Shown here one piece after another: positions 37,274 through 62,037 of a DNA stretch of 64,000 bases. The translations under genes were made by a program, and so were the position numbers. This DNA is from Candidatus Nomurabacteria bacterium (GTDB lineage Bacteria > Patescibacteriota > Minisyncoccia > Phycocordibacterales > UBA9973), in the NCBI GenBank assembly GCA_963832025.1, contig CAWHSF010000003.1, positions 366,121 to 430,120 of the forward strand, given 5' to 3'. The notes beneath the pieces are model-generated. The model made no database searches, was not told the DNA's origin, and saw only the letters and a list, made by a program, of their open reading frames with translations. Each line of letters starts with the position of its first letter. The first letter of the stretch is position 1.

Positions 37274-39016
37274 ATGAACTCTCCCGTTCAAAAAATTAAG
37301 GAGAGACTGACAATTGAAGAATTAGTCTCTTCTTATATAAAGCTCGACAGAGCGGGCGCAAATCTAAAAGCTCGATGTCCTTTTCATAATGAAAAAACAC
37401 CTTCCTTTTTTATTTCGCCTGACCGGGGAACTTATTATTGTTTTGGTTGCGGAGCGTCCGGAGACATATTTACTTTTGTCGAAGAGTTTGAAGGGCTTGA
37501 TTTTAAAGGAGCCTTAAAAATGTTGGCGGATAGAGCCGGAGTACAACTAGAACATTTTAACCCAAAAGACAAGGAGAATAAGAGTGAAAAAGAAAAGCTT
37601 TATGAGGTAATGGAAGAAGCGACTTTATTTTTTGAAAAAAATTTAAATGTAAACAAAGAAGCTTTGGAATATATTAAATCTCGTGGGGTAAATGAGAAAA
37701 GCATTGCTGATTTTAGAGTCGGATACATCGCACCAGACTGGCGATTGCTTTATACTCATTTGAAAAACAAAGGTTTTTCTGATGGAGAAATAGAAAAAGC
37801 TGGACTCGCTAAAAGAGTGGATAAAGGCCTGCCTGCCGGCAGGCAGGGAATGTATGACAGATTTCGCGGAAGAATCATGTTTCCAATTGCAGACTCTAGT
37901 GGGCGCATAATTGCTTTTTCAGGCCGGCTTCTTGAAGCCGGCCTGTCCGCCGAAGCTTTAGCGAAGGCGGGCGCTAAGTATCTTAATAGTCCGGAAACAC
38001 CAATTTTCAGTAAAAATGCCGTACTTTATGGCATAGACAAAGCCAAAGATTCCATTCGCAAAAACAATTTTTCTATTTTAGTGGAAGGACAAATGGATTT
38101 GATTATGTCCCACCAAGCAGGCTATAAAAACACCGTTGCGACATCCGGCACCGCTTTGTCGGATTCAACCGTATCTAAAGAACGGGTTGTTTCTAATTTG
38201 GGATTGATTCGCAGACTGTCTCCAAATATTGTTCTGGCTTTTGACGCCGATAAAGCAGGAGCCAATGCGACAATCAGGGCAGGCAACATAGCTTTGTCTT
38301 TAGGTATGGATGTAAAGGTTGCAAAGATGGGGGATGGAGTTGACCCAGCGGATTTAATATCGAAAGAAGGAGTAGACGCATGGAAGCAAGTCGTTCGTGA
38401 AGCTAAACATATTATAGAATTTCTCCTAAATAAAGTTTTAAATACTTCTCGGAATGATACTCGCAAAACAGGCAGGGAAATAAAAGAAAAAATATTGCCG
38501 TTTGTAAACGCCCTGGAGAGTTCAATCGAGAAAACATATTTCATAAAAAAAATCAGTGATTTGTCAGGAATTCCGGAACCTGCGCTCCAAGACGATTTGC
38601 GAAAAATTGAACAGGAATTAAAATACGAAAAAGAAGAAATAAAAGAAGCAGATAATGCTCAAAATAAATTATACAGAAAAGATTATATAGAACGTAAACT
38701 TTTAGGCATTGCTTTTTGGAAAAAAGATTCTGAGATTTTGGAAAAATTGGCTCCCATTGTAAAAAAATATGAAAATATAAAAGAAGATTTAATTTTTGAA
38801 GCGGAAGTTTTTTACGCAAATGATGAAAATTTGGAAAAAAGCGTTAATGAAATGTTTATAAACTTGGAAGAAGAAGATATTAATGCAGAATTGAATAAAA
38901 AAATGACAGAGTTGAAGCAAAATACAGAGGAGGAAAAAGGGAAGTCGATTCTGAAAGAGATAAATGAATTAAATAAAAAGAAAGAAGAAATTAAAAACGG
39001 TCGCTTTAAAAAATAA
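37274..39016 (+). CDS. dnaG: DNA primase, with three short palindromic in-frame insertions and a Lys/Glu-rich tail
   Basis: Zinc finger [30 protein letters not shown], plus [25 protein letters not shown] and TOPRIM motifs EGQMDLI and [10 protein letters not shown]. Confidence 0.9.
37828..37847. repeat. Family C 20-bp perfect palindrome inside dnaG
   Basis: CCTGCCTGCCGGCAGGCAGG, translated as LPAGRQG. Identical to 60124-60143. Confidence 0.9.
37922..37971. repeat. Two adjacent GC-rich hairpins inside dnaG
   Basis: ggccggctt-cttg-aagccggcc, then tccgccgaagctttagcgaaggcggg (family D). Translated as [17 protein letters not shown], just before the conserved KYLNSPET. Confidence 0.7.
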
Positions 39017-58065: not shown

Positions 58066-59502
58066 ATGGATAAAAATAAGCCACTAAAGAACTTTTTAGA
58101 AATACCTTACGACGAGCTGGAAGTAATGAATTTGCGTGCAAAAGAACAAGCAGAAAAGTTGAGTGCAGTGGAAGTAGAGAAGCAACATTGTTTATATTTA
58201 CAAAAAGAAAAGAGAATAAAGGCTATCACTGTTTGTTTTACCGACATTGAGGGTCGTTTTCATATGCTGGATTATGATAAGAAATTTTTGCTTGATTCGG
58301 TTAACAATTTAACTTTTGATGGTTCTTCAATTCGTGGTTTTAGCCAGCAACATGAATCGGACTTGCGTTTAAATGTCGATTGGAAAAGTATTCGTTTTCT
58401 TCCATCCGATGTCTTTGGTCCCGGAAAAGTGATTGTTTTTGCGGATGTTTTAGACCGCGATCGTATGCCTTACATCTCGGATTTTCGTGGCCAATTAAAA
58501 CTTTACACAGAGCAATTAAAGAAACAGAATGGCATTATTGCAAATGCTTCGGCCGAAGTGGAAGGGTTTTTGGTTGATGGAATAAATGCAGAACACCAAT
58601 ATAAAGACAAAGGTTCCTTTAATTTTATTTCCACTGGTGGTTATTATCATTCATTACCTTTAGACCGCTTGCGTCAGTTTATTGATAGGACAGCAGAGGC
58701 GCAGCGCGCTTTGGGATTCAAAAATGAAAAAGACCATCCGGAAGTCGCGCCATCACAATTTGAAATGAACTTTTCCTATTCCGATGTATTGCGTGCAGCT
58801 GATAATATCCAACTCTACAAACTTGTTTGTCGCCAAGTTGCAAATAATCTCGGTATGACTGCGACTTTCTTACCGAAACCATTTGTGGGGATAAACGGCT
58901 CTGGAATGCACACCAATGTTTCTTTGGCCAAAGCGGGTAAAAACATTTTTTATGAAAAAAAAGGAAAAGACGGTTTATCAAAAATAGCCTGGGATTTTAT
59001 TTCCCGTATCTTGAATCATGCTTCAGAAATTTGTTTAGTTTTTAATTCCAGTGTAAATTCTTATCGTCGACTTGACCCGCATTTCGAAGCACCAAACCAA
59101 ATTAAAGTTTCTGCGATTGATCGAGGTTCCATGATTCGTATTCCCGTGGGCAATGAACGCTCCACTCGTATTGAAGTTCGTTCAGTCGCGCCGGATGCCA
59201 ATCCATATCTGGTTTTGTTGACTATATTAAAAACCGGACTGGAAGGAACCCTGCTTATCAAAGATAAAGACAAGAGAGATCGGGTGCGTGTTTTGCCGGA
59301 TAATATTTATGACGCAATTAAATTATTTAAGGCCAGTGATTTTGTCGGGAAGATTCTTCACCCGGTAAATCAAGAAAAATACACGGAATACAAACAAAGT
59401 GCAGCCGACCGCAGCCCCAAAGCTTTGGGTACGATTATAAAATCTTCCGAAATTATTTATCACCACGAAGTGACCAACCAGGTCCTTTGGCATAGATTTT
59501 AA
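58066..59502 (+). CDS. glnA: Glutamine synthetase
   Basis: Motifs FTDIEGRFHMLDY, HPEVAPSQFEMNF, KPFVGINGSGMHTNVSL, NSYRRL and RIEVRSVAPDANPYL. Confidence 0.92.
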   Translation: MDKNKPLKNFLEIPYDELEVMNLRAKEQAEKLSAVEVEKQHCLYLQKEKRIKAITVCFTDIEGRFHMLDYDKKFLLDSVNNLTFDGSSIRGFSQQHESDLRLNVDWKSIRFLPSDVFGPGKVIVFADVLDRDRMPYISDFRGQLKLYTEQLKKQNGIIANASAEVEGFLVDGINAEHQYKDKGSFNFISTGGYYHSLPLDRLRQFIDRTAEAQRALGFKNEKDHPEVAPSQFEMNFSYSDVLRAADNIQLYKLVCRQVANNLGMTATFLPKPFVGINGSGMHTNVSLAKAGKNIFYEKKGKDGLSKIAWDFISRILNHASEICLVFNSSVNSYRRLDPHFEAPNQIKVSAIDRGSMIRIPVGNERSTRIEVRSVAPDANPYLVLLTILKTGLEGTLLIKDKDKRDRVRVLPDNIYDAIKLFKASDFVGKILHPVNQEKYTEYKQSAADRSPKALGTIIKSSEIIYHHEVTNQVLWHRF

Positions 59503-59529
59503 ATTTTTTCGATATAAATGATTTCAGTG

Positions 59530-59600
59530 TGGACCTAGCGAGAATCGAACTCGCGCTTCGTCAATGCGAATGACGCGTAATACCACTTTACTATAGGCCC
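59530..59600 (-). tRNA. tRNA-Ala (anticodon CGC)
   Basis: The reverse complement gggcctatagtaaagtggtattacgcgtcattCGCattgacg... has the G3:U70 pair, A73, a perfect 5-bp anticodon stem and a TTCGATT T-loop. Confidence 0.75.
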
Positions 59601-59615
59601 GTGTATGCGGGTATG

Positions 59616-59687
59616 TGCGTCTTGTTGGAATCGGACCAACGGCCTTTCCGATGTGAACGGAACGCTCTACCCCTGAGCTAAAGACGC
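59616..59687 (-). tRNA. tRNA-Val (anticodon CAC)
   Basis: The reverse complement gcgtctttagctcaggggtagagcgttccgttCACatcggaa... folds as a cloverleaf with acceptor gcgtctt/aagacgc. Confidence 0.85.
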
Positions 59688-59702
59688 AAGCAGAATTCCC
59701 AG

Positions 59703-59773
59703 TGGACCTACGGAGAGTCGGACTCCGACCTCGTCCATGCCATGGACGCGTTCTACCGCTGAACTATAGGCCC
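59703..59773 (-). tRNA. tRNA-Ala (anticodon GGC)
   Basis: The reverse complement gggcctatagttcagcggtagaacgcgtccatGGCatggacg... has the G3:U70 pair and A73. Confidence 0.85.
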
Positions 59774-59858
59774 GTCTGTAGAATAATAGCCGAAATATAT
59801 AAAAATACAACGGCAATTTACATTTTAATCAAAATAATATAAAATGCCTTTGTTGTCT

Positions 59859-59931
59859 GGGCCTTTAGCTCATCTGGTAGAGCGCCTCATTTGCAATGAG
59901 GAGGTAAGGAGTTCGAGTCTCCTAAGGTCCA
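59859..59931 (+). tRNA. tRNA-Ala (anticodon UGC)
   Basis: gggcctttagctcatctggtagagcgcctcattTGCaatgagg...aggagttcgagtctcctaaggtcca, with the G3:U70 pair and A73. Confidence 0.9.
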
Positions 59932-60103
59932 CAATGATCCGCGAGAACAGCTGGGAGCTGCTTGAGCGAATCATCATTGTGTGACATGAGAGACGAGAAA
60001 GGCGGAGGCCGACGGGCCGAGCCGGGGTAGCGAAATTTTTCAGTAGAAAAATATTTGTGACCGAGTCTCCTAATGTCCACAGTTGTTCTTTGGAAAATTA
60101 AAT

Positions 60104-60157
60104 TCGGGAGTAGCTCAGCGGTACCTGCCTGCCGGCAGGCAGGGGGCGGTCGCCTGT
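60104..60157 (+). pseudogene. Orphan 5-prime half of tRNA-Asn (acceptor to anticodon positions 34-35) carrying a 20-bp palindrome in the D arm
   Basis: tcgggagtagctcagcggta[cctgcctgccggcaggcagg]gggcggtcgcctgt matches the intact tRNA-Asn 5-prime half at 60415-60448, apart from the insert and one substitution. Confidence 0.75.
60124..60143. repeat. Family C 20-bp perfect palindrome inside the tRNA-Asn 5-prime fragment
   Basis: CCTGCCTGCCGGCAGGCAGG, inserted relative to the intact tRNA-Asn D arm. Confidence 0.9.
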
Positions 60158-60171
60158 GATATGATTTAGAA

Positions 60172-60435
60172 ATGGAGGAAAATTTCGTTTACGCCATAAA
60201 AAGCATAAAGGATGGCAGAATTTATGTTGGAATGAGTCGTAACCCGTAAAAGAGATTGTTGGAACACAACAGCGGAAAAGTTTTTTCTACGAAAGGTTTT
60301 CGTCCTTGGATTCTGATATTTTTTGAAAATACTGGCGCAAGTAGAATTTATGCCAGAATTAGGGAAAAATATTGGAAATCAGGGTGTGGTAAGGAAAAAT
60401 TGAAAAAAGAATATTCGGGAGTAGCTCAGCGGTAG
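60172..60435 (+). pseudogene. Small GIY-YIG (COG2827/YhbQ-like) nuclease gene with an in-frame TAA at 60247-60249. Its 3-prime end runs into tRNA-Asn.
   Basis: Translation: MEENFVYAIKSIKDGRIYVGMSRNP*KRLLEHNSGK...GFRPWILIFFE...ARIREKYWKSG. This is the GIY...YVG...R...EHN pattern of the GIY-YIG fold. Confidence 0.7.
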
Positions 60436-60486
60436 AGCGGTCGCCTGTTAAGCGATTGGTCGTAGGTTCGATCCCTACCTCCCGAG
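60415..60486 (+). tRNA. tRNA-Asn (anticodon GUU)
   Basis: tcgggagtagctcagcggtagagcggtcgcctGTTaagcgattggtcgtaggttcgatccctacctcccgag folds as a canonical cloverleaf. Confidence 0.9.
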
Positions 60487-60676
60487 CATTACGTGGACTT
60501 TCAGCGTAGAGTTCTTCTATTTGTCCTCGTATTTTTACCTATTTTGAGAGGTTCTAACCGTTTATTTTCAATCACTACATCTTTTAAGGGAATTAGCGTT
60601 TTTTCCATATCAATCACTACGATTTTGTCTTTTAACGACGAGGTGCGAACCTAATTGGATGAATACCTCTTTTTTC

Positions 60677-62037
60677 TCAAAGGTTCGCCTTTTTCAAACT
60701 TGGCTCTTGCATCTCTGGCAAAGTCAGCAAACCTCGTCTGCTTTTTTCATAAAGCAGGTCAACATCCTTGCCCGTCTTGTTAAAGATATTTTCCCAGCGT
60801 TGTTTTTCTGCTGTTAGTGGTTCTTTACGCATTTTAAATTCCTCCTCGGTTAATTCTTGATTGGCTCGCATATCAATCAAGCCCGACAATTTTTTCAAGC
60901 ATTCTTTATATGCCTTATTTTGCGTATCAAGGATGGATTCGGTTGTTTGAGCTTGTTTGGCGTTTTCTTTTCTAAACCACTTCAAAGCAAAATCGTGCAA
61001 ATCTGGCGGGAATGGTTAGTGAATCAATTTCTGTTTTAATTTGTTTTTCCAATTCTTTTTGCTCAATACATTTCTGGGTGCAGTTTGGATTTATGCGTTT
61101 CGTGCAATGGTAATAAATATATCTGTGTATGTTGCCGTTCTTGTTGCCTTTTGATTTTTTCTTCTGCTGTAATGCTTGCTCCGCACTCTCCGCACTCCAT
61201 AAGCCCCGTAAAGGCGAAAATATGCGTCTTGGGGCGAGGTTTGCCTTTCTGCCGAGATATTACTTGTATCTTGTCGTATTCTTCTGCAGTCATTAAAGGT
61301 TTATATGTCCCTTTATACCAAATACCACTTCCTTTCGGATATTCGAAAATCCCGTAATAAGCGGTATTAGTGAAAATATAGTAAATCGTATTTCTGCTCA
61401 TCTTTTTGCCATTGGGCATTTTAAAGCCCCATTCTTCGTTGGCTATATTTCTCTGATTTTTAACGGAGTATAAAGACCCGTAAGCATCATATCAACCATT
61501 TTACGAACCAAATCAAATCTTTCTGGGTCTGGGTAAATTTGCTTTTTACCTCGTTCGTCATATTTATTATTTTTATATCCAGTCGGGGCGGGTGCAGGAT
61601 ACATTCCTTTTTCAGCTTTTGTTTTTAATCCTCGTTTTACATCTTCGCCCTTGTTATCATTTTCCAGTTTCGCTTGATTACAAAACAGAGCAAGCATAAA
61701 TTTATCGTTGGGGATATTGCGCTATAAATTTGGCTTGGAGTTCTGACTTCAACCAGTTTCCCTAAATCCATTAAATACACAATCTTGCCTGTATCTATTG
61801 GATTTCGTGAAATTCTGCTTGGCGCTCCAAACCAAAAGCCCATTGGCATAGCCATTGTCAATTTTTTCAACCAGTTCGGCAAATTTAGGTCTGTTGAGTT
61901 TTTTTGCCGAGTGTGATTCTTCAATAATTTCAATACTATTCATGCTTTTCTCGTTTCGCAACAACTTAAAGTTCTTTTCTTGCGATTCAATAGATCAAAA
62001 CTTGCCTATCTTCTTGTTCGGAAGTATTTACGACAGT
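60677..62037 (-). pseudogene. Large serine recombinase split over at least five frame-shifted pieces
   Basis: Pieces read, in order: TVVNTSEQEDRQ...SIESQEKEL; SAKKLNRPKFAELVEKIDNGYANGLLVW; RISRNPIDTGKIVYLMD; recombinase domain GYKNNKY...RFDLVRKMVDMML...YYIFTNTAYYGIFEY; Zn ribbon GLMECGECGASITAEE; coiled-coil tail. Confidence 0.75.

Follow-up and report, generated by a model that had tools for sequence, protein, structure and literature searches.

A 20 nt perfect palindrome, CCTGCCTGCCGGCAGGCAGG, abbreviated P in what follows, is present twice in a 64,000 nt stretch of the genome of a Candidatus Nomurabacteria bacterium (contig CAWHSF010000003.1; the whole stretch is referred to as the window). 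One copy lies in frame in dnaG, the gene for DNA primase. The other interrupts a partial copy of tRNA-Asn that is followed by a small gene of the GIY-YIG nuclease family and then by an intact tRNA-Asn (Table 1). P is a discrete inserted element that leaves no target duplication. A sequence-only reading of the window had pointed to the same 20-mer in dnaG and in a broken tRNA-Asn, and this stands: both copies are exact, no other match is found in the window at up to three mismatches, and P is matched in none of 100 dinucleotide-preserving shuffles of the window. The details of that reading are also borne out. The dnaG copy encodes LPAGRQ(G) immediately before a conserved motif, the tRNA-Asn half-copy is interrupted, as now located between positions 20 and 21, the intact tRNA-Asn lacks P, and the palindrome has GCCGGC at its centre.

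P differs in composition from its surroundings, with a G+C content of 80% versus 39% in the window, and it has no stop codon in any frame. As single-stranded DNA it folds into an 8 bp stem with a 4 nt loop (−8.0 kcal/mol). Its letters can be written as (CCTG)2CC followed by GG(CAGG)2.

Table 1. Features of the two P-bearing loci in the window
Feature	Position	Strand	Basis
Host gene of solo P: dnaG (DNA primase)	37274..39016	+	Open reading frame; homologues with primase Pfam domains
Solo P plus one G, 21 nt in-frame dnaG insertion (LPAGRQG)	37828..37848		Exact match (P, 37828..37847) and comparison of filled and empty sites
Segment a, copy of tRNA-Asn positions 1–20	60104..60123	+	20 of 20 identical to the intact gene
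P plug in partial tRNA-Asn copy, 3′ edge of D-loop (after ..GCGGTA)	60124..60143		Exact match; position common to many cassettes
Segment b, copy of tRNA-Asn positions 21–34	60144..60157	+	GGGCGGTCGCCTGT versus GAGCGGTCGCCTGT; ends in anticodon loop
Small GIY-YIG nuclease gene, UPF0213/SLX1-like	60172..60414	+	Pfam, PDB and hidden Markov model matches; in-frame TAA at 60247–60249
Intact tRNA-Asn(GTT)	60415..60487	+	Begins directly 3′ of the nuclease gene; without P

The tRNA-nuclease cassette

The tRNA-Asn locus of the window (60104–60487) is one example of a recurrent cassette; its nuclease reading frame of about 80 codons has been broken by a nonsense codon, and the cassette is thus a decayed one. 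Cassettes are ordered a-P-b-[nuclease gene]-a-b-c, or in mirror image a-b-c-[gene]-b′-P-c, where a-b-c represents an intact tRNA and the remaining pieces make up a partial copy of it. The same architecture recurs at loci that were fetched for P alone. These include tRNA-Lys in a WWE3 genome (L037), tRNA-Gly (L106), tRNA-Lys on a viral contig (L152), tRNA-Leu (L118) and tRNA-Met (L077). A further cassette, a-P-b-gene-c at L060:3861–4142, lies inside hsdS, a type I restriction specificity gene. It is the sole cassette seen outside a tRNA gene, and 21 nt of hsdS sequence (QDPNDPP) separate its P from the open reading frame.

A reciprocal test started from the protein. Seven cassette proteins were aligned, and 80 metagenomic loci were fetched by protein similarity alone. 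A tRNA adjoins the nuclease gene in 70 of these 80 loci (Asn, Arg, Leu, Lys, Thr, Phe, Met or Glu), and P with up to three mismatches is found within 120 nt upstream of the open reading frame in 53, about 33 of these copies being exact. P is always situated within a partial copy of the adjoining tRNA. The left and right flanks of P meet at a single tRNA position, so that an insertion amounts to precisely 20 nt and nothing is duplicated. The insertion point is mostly at tRNA position 20–23, the 3′ edge of the D-loop after ..GGTA or ..GGTAGA, and less frequently at position 9–10 or 14–15. The partial tRNA copy usually ends at position 28–38. P and the gene boundary are separated by a variable 6–35 nt, and P is often 16–58 nt upstream of the nuclease reading frame.

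Nearly all loci that seem to be without P have some insert at the same positions. Some carry P with a 1 nt deletion or a 3 nt insertion. Others carry P halves that are 12–24 nt apart and have conserved CCTGCC...GGCAGG ends, a recurrent 29-mer, CCTGCCTACCTGGCGGTACGGCAGGCAGG, with P-like ends, or P derivatives of 16 nt and 8 nt (CCTGCAGG). Still others have different hairpins of ∼19–20 nt that recur in several loci. By inspection, a plug is present in about 65 of the 68 loci that have an adjoining tRNA and enough flank, and P is an almost obligatory part of the tRNA-associated GIY-YIG cassette. The sequence-only reading had raised the possibility of a minimal unit, or a footprint, of something larger. 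This is substantiated at tRNA genes, where P forms one part of this cassette.

In mirror cassettes, the intact tRNA is followed by the gene, a short tRNA-derived stretch, P and a 3′ partial copy. P is then at the junction of the anticodon stem and the variable loop or in the T-loop. P is downstream of the gene in these mirror forms, which rules out that it is a 5′ untranslated region element of the nuclease gene. Tandem cassette units also occur.

The cassette protein belongs to the Pfam GIY-YIG family (PF01541; E 8e-10 to 3e-15). The window gene matches with E 8e-10, and its hidden Markov model hits, at 60184–60243 and 60250–60405, lie on either side of the TAA codon. The cassette proteins have 78–95 amino acids, and the GIY-YIG domain spans almost the whole length. 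They display neither a second Pfam or NCBIfam domain nor an NCBIfam name, and the separate DNA-binding domain that characterizes a homing endonuclease is absent. In the alignment of the seven proteins, no variation is seen at the conserved residues Y, Y, G, R, H and E. Best matches in the PDB are the UPF0213 proteins 1ywl (E 2e-12) and 1zg2 (E 1e-11), followed by SLX1 (E 1e-4) and, weakly, I-TevI. Related small GIY-YIG genes are found in cultured Rhizobium phages, where no tRNA gene adjoins them.

Partial tRNA copies beside GIY-YIG genes contain other recurrent inserts. One, TTTACCTCCCGAAGGGAGG, recurs at tRNA position 12, and another, CCTGTCTACCGACAGGTAGA, recurs in both orientations. The loci with these inserts or with the 29-mer are L363, L373, L374 and L389; L361, L403, L416 and L439; and L380, L390, L391 and L397. 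Many inserts in partial tRNAs end in CAGG on the tRNA-sense strand.

Additional arrangements of P and tRNA genes were observed. In two viral contigs with 64–68% G+C (L145:2284 and L122:8616), P is in the variable loop of a tRNA-Met gene. This gene is full-length in L145 and 3′-truncated in L122, and L145 has a second tRNA-Met ∼27 nt after P. Full-length tRNA-Arg copies with P in the D-loop are present in L085 and L379. At L152:829–960, the tRNA-Lys downstream of the cassette is split early in the anticodon loop by a long insert that may be a group I intron.

A scan of window positions 59000–61000 against Rfam (E up to 1) returned tRNA families alone, with no match over P or the cassette. The interrupted tRNA-Asn of the window does not resemble a tRNA with a group I intron: there is no ribozyme match, the interrupted copy extends no further than position 34, and the complete tRNA is a separate gene downstream.

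Two other features are close to the window cassette. At 59933–60082, tRNA-Ala(TGC) is followed by ∼125 nt of unrelated, partly G+C-rich DNA and then by a 3′ partial copy, gaccgagtctcctaatgtccaca. It resembles the decayed remnant of an insertion that duplicated the 3′ part of its target, and no GIY-YIG signal was found in it. Just downstream of tRNA-Asn, at 61063–61964 on the minus strand, adjacent open reading frame fragments resemble a large serine recombinase and are probably the remains of an integrated element.

Dispersal and insertion sites of P

P is abundantly dispersed. In a scan of one genome per species, comprising 596 Gb and giving a lower bound, P was detected in at least 120 species genomes, versus ∼0.5 expected by chance for a palindromic 20-mer. 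Carriers among the matches listed are Patescibacteria (many classes), Bacteroidota, Omnitrophota, Planctomycetota, Chloroflexi and Thermodesulfobacteriota, as well as Bdellovibrionales, Thermodesulfovibrionales and gamma- and deltaproteobacterial metagenome-assembled genomes. The Bacteroidota carriers include isolate genomes of Winogradskyella, Flagellimonas, Longitalea and Flavivirga. In IMG/VR, P is found in 35 viral stretches, and some contigs hold up to six copies. P is present in contigs with 60–70% G+C as well. No exact copy was found in curated collections of cultured phages and plasmids. The sequence-only reading would have been withdrawn if the two window copies were the only ones and one of them stemmed from a chimeric assembly; there are, instead, hundreds of copies in unrelated assemblies, isolates included.

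P is a specific sequence that is conserved at all 20 positions. This was determined with a pool consisting of stretches that match CCTGCCT-N6-AGGCAGG together with the P-bearing viral loci. The N6 centre is GCCGGC 42 times and the one-mismatch GCCGGT eight times, and the rest are essentially singletons. The outer triplets around the core GCCTGCCGGCAGGC are CCT/AGG 42 times, and any other combination occurs at most three times. No compensatory pair changes were found in the pool. A palindrome with the arms swapped, GGCAGGCAGGCCTGCCTGCC, has a folding energy of −8.9 kcal/mol versus −8.0 kcal/mol for P, and has no match in the viral collection. The fixed centre and outer triplets, the lack of compensatory pairs and the result with the arm-swapped control therefore show that P is not a class of hairpins defined by structure only. 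A continuum of covarying hairpins is ruled out by the first two of these observations. Fold-back of a microsatellite, or selection for stability alone, is ruled out by the third.

Few copies of P have a nuclease reading frame or a tRNA nearby (a tRNA is within 400 nt in 17 of 167 copies), and most copies are therefore solo, ∼95% being without a nuclease reading frame. Solo copies show a preference for an A before P and a T after it (33 of 125 cases), or for a G on both sides (34, both strands counted). P is located in the loop of a local hairpin in 10.2% of copies versus 2.5% of control positions, and often abuts one arm. Within tRNAs, it is inserted in the D-, anticodon, variable and T-loops. 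P nested in the loop of another P was also found. Loops of foldable DNA are thus favoured as targets.

With respect to the target-site duplications that had been proposed as a check, no duplication of fixed length is found: insertions add precisely 20 nt to tRNA copies, and the one in dnaG adds 21 nt. Direct flanking repeats of at least 7 nt (7–14 nt) are present in 15.6% of P copies versus 4.3% of controls, but these are not fixed in length. In several contigs (L121:10560–11330, L129:8396, L101:1815 and L082:346), solo P is part of 7–14 nt tandem repeats or of long imperfect inverted arrays. The tandem units differ from locus to locus, and they are found in low- and high-G+C contigs alike.

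The dnaG copy of the window provides filled and empty sites for comparison. A protein encoded on a 430 kb NCBI contig is identical to the DnaG of the window, and its relatives are from Nomurabacteria/Paceibacteria. Site A immediately precedes YDRFR. It is empty in P0002, which with 87% identity is the closest relative and reads KKTEKGM-YDRFR. The empty DNA is GAA AAA GG/A ATG, where the slash marks the site, and the filled DNA of the window is GAT AAA GG[P]G A ATG. The insertion consists of P and one G, 21 nt in total, with a junction ambiguity of 1–2 nt. The gene for another protein, P0062, carries this insert at the very nucleotide of site A that is filled in the window (GAT GAA GG[P]G A TAT). 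P0062 and the window protein have 73% identity, and the nearer relatives of P0062 (P0026, P0028 and P0078, 81–83% identity) are empty. Since both filled lineages are nearer to proteins with empty sites, either at least two gains took place at site A, or one gain and several precise losses. On these sequence comparisons, the insertion in dnaG is clean, recent and recurrent.

A third protein, P0014, carries P at site B, before KYLNSPET (GAT GA[P]TG). P is therefore in frame in the dnaG of three lineages from different sources. The DnaG loop that holds P in the window is of variable length among relatives. Short G+C-rich inserts other than P concentrate at site B, a hot spot where they differ from one relative to another. 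The earlier proposal of mobility or targeted insertion gains support from these clean filled and empty sites in dnaG and from the dispersal over many phyla and viral contigs.

The window itself carries another G+C-rich insert at site B (37925–37978). It is composed of a 22 nt hairpin, GGCCGGCTTCTTGAAGCCGGCC, and a split TCCGCC...GGCGGG hairpin, and it is shared with P0002, P0026 and P0028; most relatives read IFVDDGKSA there. In one relative (L360:938–1324), a PemK-type toxin gene is located between rpoC and dnaG, whereas the window has no such gene at this position.

A target motif common to dnaG and the tRNA D-loop was considered and rejected, as the GGATA resemblance in the window is not conserved in the other filled and empty alleles. 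Fusions of P in frame with other reading frames were also detected, in genes encoding FtsK, GatB, ribosomal protein S6, a sugar dehydratase and a PMT-type glycosyltransferase.

Possible modes of spread

The explanation that is favoured, with guarded confidence, is that P represents a miniature hairpin insert that is propagated together with tRNA-homing GIY-YIG cassettes and also spreads alone, by a mechanism that we infer from the arrangement of the loci. The nuclease would break a tRNA gene, and the break would be repaired from a template that bears the cassette, segment a and segments b-c, which are conserved tRNA sequence, acting as homology arms. With conserved tRNA sequence itself as the homology, the cassette could cross species without a species-specific flank. 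Repair by way of the a and b-c arms would reproduce the order a-P-b-gene-a-b-c and would explain the tandem units. P would be at the break point of the leftover copy and would split both the presumed nuclease site and the 30–40 nt direct repeat, so that this copy would be neither cut again nor recombined out. Solo copies may mark breaks elsewhere that were mended either with a short stretch copied from a P-bearing template or with the self-complementary 20-mer itself, captured at the break. Only harmless insertions would then persist, i.e., those that are intergenic, in hairpin loops, or in frame in tolerant loops of proteins.

Several points weigh against this explanation. The cutting of tRNA genes by the nuclease, and any tie of the nuclease to P, are suggested by association, and a GIY-YIG reading frame is within 150 nt of P in five of 125 genome copies and in one of 42 viral copies. 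The protein is a bare catalytic domain without a DNA-binding domain, which leaves its site specificity unexplained. The intact tRNA copy in the cassette would still be a target. The spacing between P and the gene boundary is variable (6–35 nt) and does not fit a fixed geometry of cleavage and insertion. The comparison of filled and empty alleles covers the dnaG sites only. In addition, the flanking repeats and tandem arrays of ∼15% of solo copies are not predicted by the model.

It is also conceivable, although unlikely, that P is itself a tiny transposon. A structure-specific nuclease together with a ligase, working on folded single-stranded DNA, would excise and re-ligate the hairpin, or its two 10 nt arms in the role of directly adjoining terminal inverted repeats. 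The GIY-YIG cassettes would then be autonomous, and the solo copies would be the non-autonomous majority. Much of the insertion data is compatible with this. Insertions are exactly 20 nt and without target duplication, empty sites are clean, and targets are loops of foldable DNA, the loop of P included. Split forms with 12–24 nt between the CCTGCC...GGCAGG ends resemble terminal repeats with a cargo, several unrelated insert families have a common size of ∼19–20 nt, and the nuclease is similar to SLX1, a structure-specific family. However, GIY-YIG enzymes are not known to function as transposases, no ligase or other partner has been identified, and half-sites do not flank the nuclease gene. 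In dnaG the insert has 21 nt and not 20, ∼95% of P copies have no nuclease gene nearby, and there is no sign of excision. Should P and its sister hairpins of ∼19–20 nt nevertheless be moved by an SLX1-like GIY-YIG enzyme that cuts and ligates single-stranded DNA, for which the chances appear small, they would be the smallest mobile DNA element described. This would be transposition without a transposase and without target duplication, its targets being the hairpin loops of tRNA genes, of other palindromes and of the element itself. The cross-phylum spread on tRNA-homing cassettes and phages would be explained as well.

P might instead not be mobile by itself, and represent the palindromic binding or recognition site of a dimeric nuclease, either a homing target or an auto-operator, with the gene inserting near a pre-existing P. 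A perfect 20 bp palindrome in which every position is conserved would suit a homodimer, and the gene is 16–58 nt away from P, which may precede or follow it. The operator of I-TevI, moreover, resembles its homing site. On the other hand, comparison of filled with empty sites identifies P itself as the inserted sequence, and P in the cassettes is always in a partial copy with local tRNA sequence on both flanks. Cassettes are tied to tRNA genes (70 of 80), while most P sites have no gene nearby, and unrelated hairpins can substitute for P. A pre-existing binding site is accordingly considered quite improbable.

A functional RNA hairpin, such as a terminator, a stabilizer of the mRNA 5′ end or a processing signal, is less likely still. 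The fold is stable, P is often 16–58 nt upstream of the nuclease reading frame, some variants retain G-T wobble pairs in the sense strand, and the L040 copy has A and T runs like those of a bidirectional terminator. However, L040 is the only one of 125 genome copies with A/T runs on both sides of P. In the window, no intrinsic terminator is formed and neither copy has a T run 3′ of P, the dnaG copy being followed by GAATGTATG and the tRNA copy by GGGCGGTCG. No Rfam match was obtained, there is no covariation, and the arm-swapped hairpin of equal stability is absent from the viral collection. A purely RNA-level role is unlikely because P is found on either side of the gene, including downstream of the reading frame, because it is in frame within essential coding sequences, and because its loop bases are as conserved as its stem.

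An artefact or chance origin, by adapter or chimera contamination or by independent fold-back of a (CCTG)n microsatellite, can be practically dismissed: P does consist of (CCTG)2CC and GG(CAGG)2, it also occurs in shorter and longer variants of one or three units, and most carriers are metagenome-assembled genomes, but P is present in isolate genomes and in sequences from different assemblers and centres, the reading frame is kept in dnaG of three lineages from different sources, loci picked by protein alone show a consistent biological context, and the arm-swapped control gave no matches.

The favoured explanation, propagation of P with tRNA-homing cassettes and also alone, has several implications if the association holds. 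It would provide a first functional context for the widespread orphan stand-alone GIY-YIG proteins (UPF0213/YhbQ-like), whose genes would be selfish and home to tRNA genes, using conserved tRNA sequence as portable homology. A partial duplicate of the target that is disabled by a conserved hairpin plug would be a design of homing not described before. A 20 nt sequence that is letter-perfect across distant phyla and viral contigs could serve as a cross-phylum marker of horizontal transfer. P would also be a source of protein insertions in essential genes (primase, FtsK, GatB and S6) of bacteria with very small genomes. In practical terms, partial tRNA copies that bear P will confuse tRNA annotation, and peptides of the LPAGRQG type in predicted proteins can be recognized as derived from the element.

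Relation to known systems

As far as could be established, a tRNA-homing GIY-YIG cassette with a conserved 20 nt hairpin plug that also spreads alone is a combination that has not been described. Literature searches found no published description of P or of the cassette, and a preprint on tRNA introns of Patescibacteria mentions neither GIY-YIG nor palindromes. Individual aspects are nevertheless shared with several known systems.

By sequence, the cassette nuclease belongs with UPF0213 (YhbQ-like, COG2827) and SLX1. SLX1 acts with SLX4 on branched DNA. No link of UPF0213/YhbQ or SLX1 to tRNA genes or palindromes was found in the literature.

P resembles repetitive extragenic palindromic (REP) sequences, with their bacterial interspersed mosaic elements (BIMEs) and REP-associated tyrosine transposases (RAYTs), and miniature inverted-repeat transposable elements (MITEs) in being a small dispersed palindromic repeat. 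The split P forms also resemble terminal inverted repeats with a cargo. P differs from REP/RAYT systems in that it is a perfect palindrome, has no GTAG head, is also found inside genes and is identical across phyla instead of being specific to a species. It differs from both REPs and MITEs in its low copy number per locus and in the lack of a target duplication. P consists of two inverted arms of 10 nt that abut; its split forms keep the CCTGCC...GGCAGG ends around 12–24 nt of other sequence, and no transposase was seen between such ends. A fixed-length target-site duplication is absent, and the ambiguity at the dnaG junction is at most 1–2 nt. No HUH or DDE transposase partner of P was seen.

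The G+C clusters of yeast mitochondria and the PstI palindromes of Neurospora mitochondria, which flank tRNA genes, are short G+C-rich palindromes dispersed through A+T-rich genomes. Like P, they are near tRNA genes and endonuclease-type open reading frames, and occasionally are inside coding sequences. These mitochondrial elements are organellar, longer and lineage-specific in sequence, and some have short target duplications. P, in contrast, is also found in contigs with 60–70% G+C.

Rickettsia palindromic elements (RPEs) are likewise palindromic repeats that are in frame in essential protein genes, tolerated there as an extra surface peptide, and are also found in RNA genes. RPEs are ∼100–150 bp long and are confined to Rickettsia. 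P differs in both length and host range, as it is 20–21 nt and identical across phyla, and it is linked to a nuclease cassette.

In homing of the I-TevI type, the cleavage site is separate from the insertion site, and the flanks are co-converted. The present cassettes similarly have two landmarks, P and the gene boundary, separated by target sequence that is from a few bases to some tens of bases long. They differ in that the spacing is variable (6–35 nt), there is no intron and the target is partly duplicated.

SegB, a GIY-YIG endonuclease of phages T4 and T6, is free-standing, and its gene is part of a tRNA cluster. It recognizes a conserved tRNA-gene motif, is propagated through the repair of breaks and causes the tRNA-segB unit to be amplified in tandem (PMC2330249, PMC13096335). 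SegB serves as the precedent for the proposed breakage of tRNA genes by the cassette nuclease. GIY-YIG genes beside tRNA genes, and tandem units, are common to SegB and the present cassettes. SegB has a DNA-binding part, whereas the cassette proteins are bare catalytic domains of 80–95 amino acids that are closest to UPF0213/SLX1. SegB loci have not been described with a partial tRNA copy plugged by a conserved palindrome, and the present cassettes are chromosomal and are found in many bacterial phyla.

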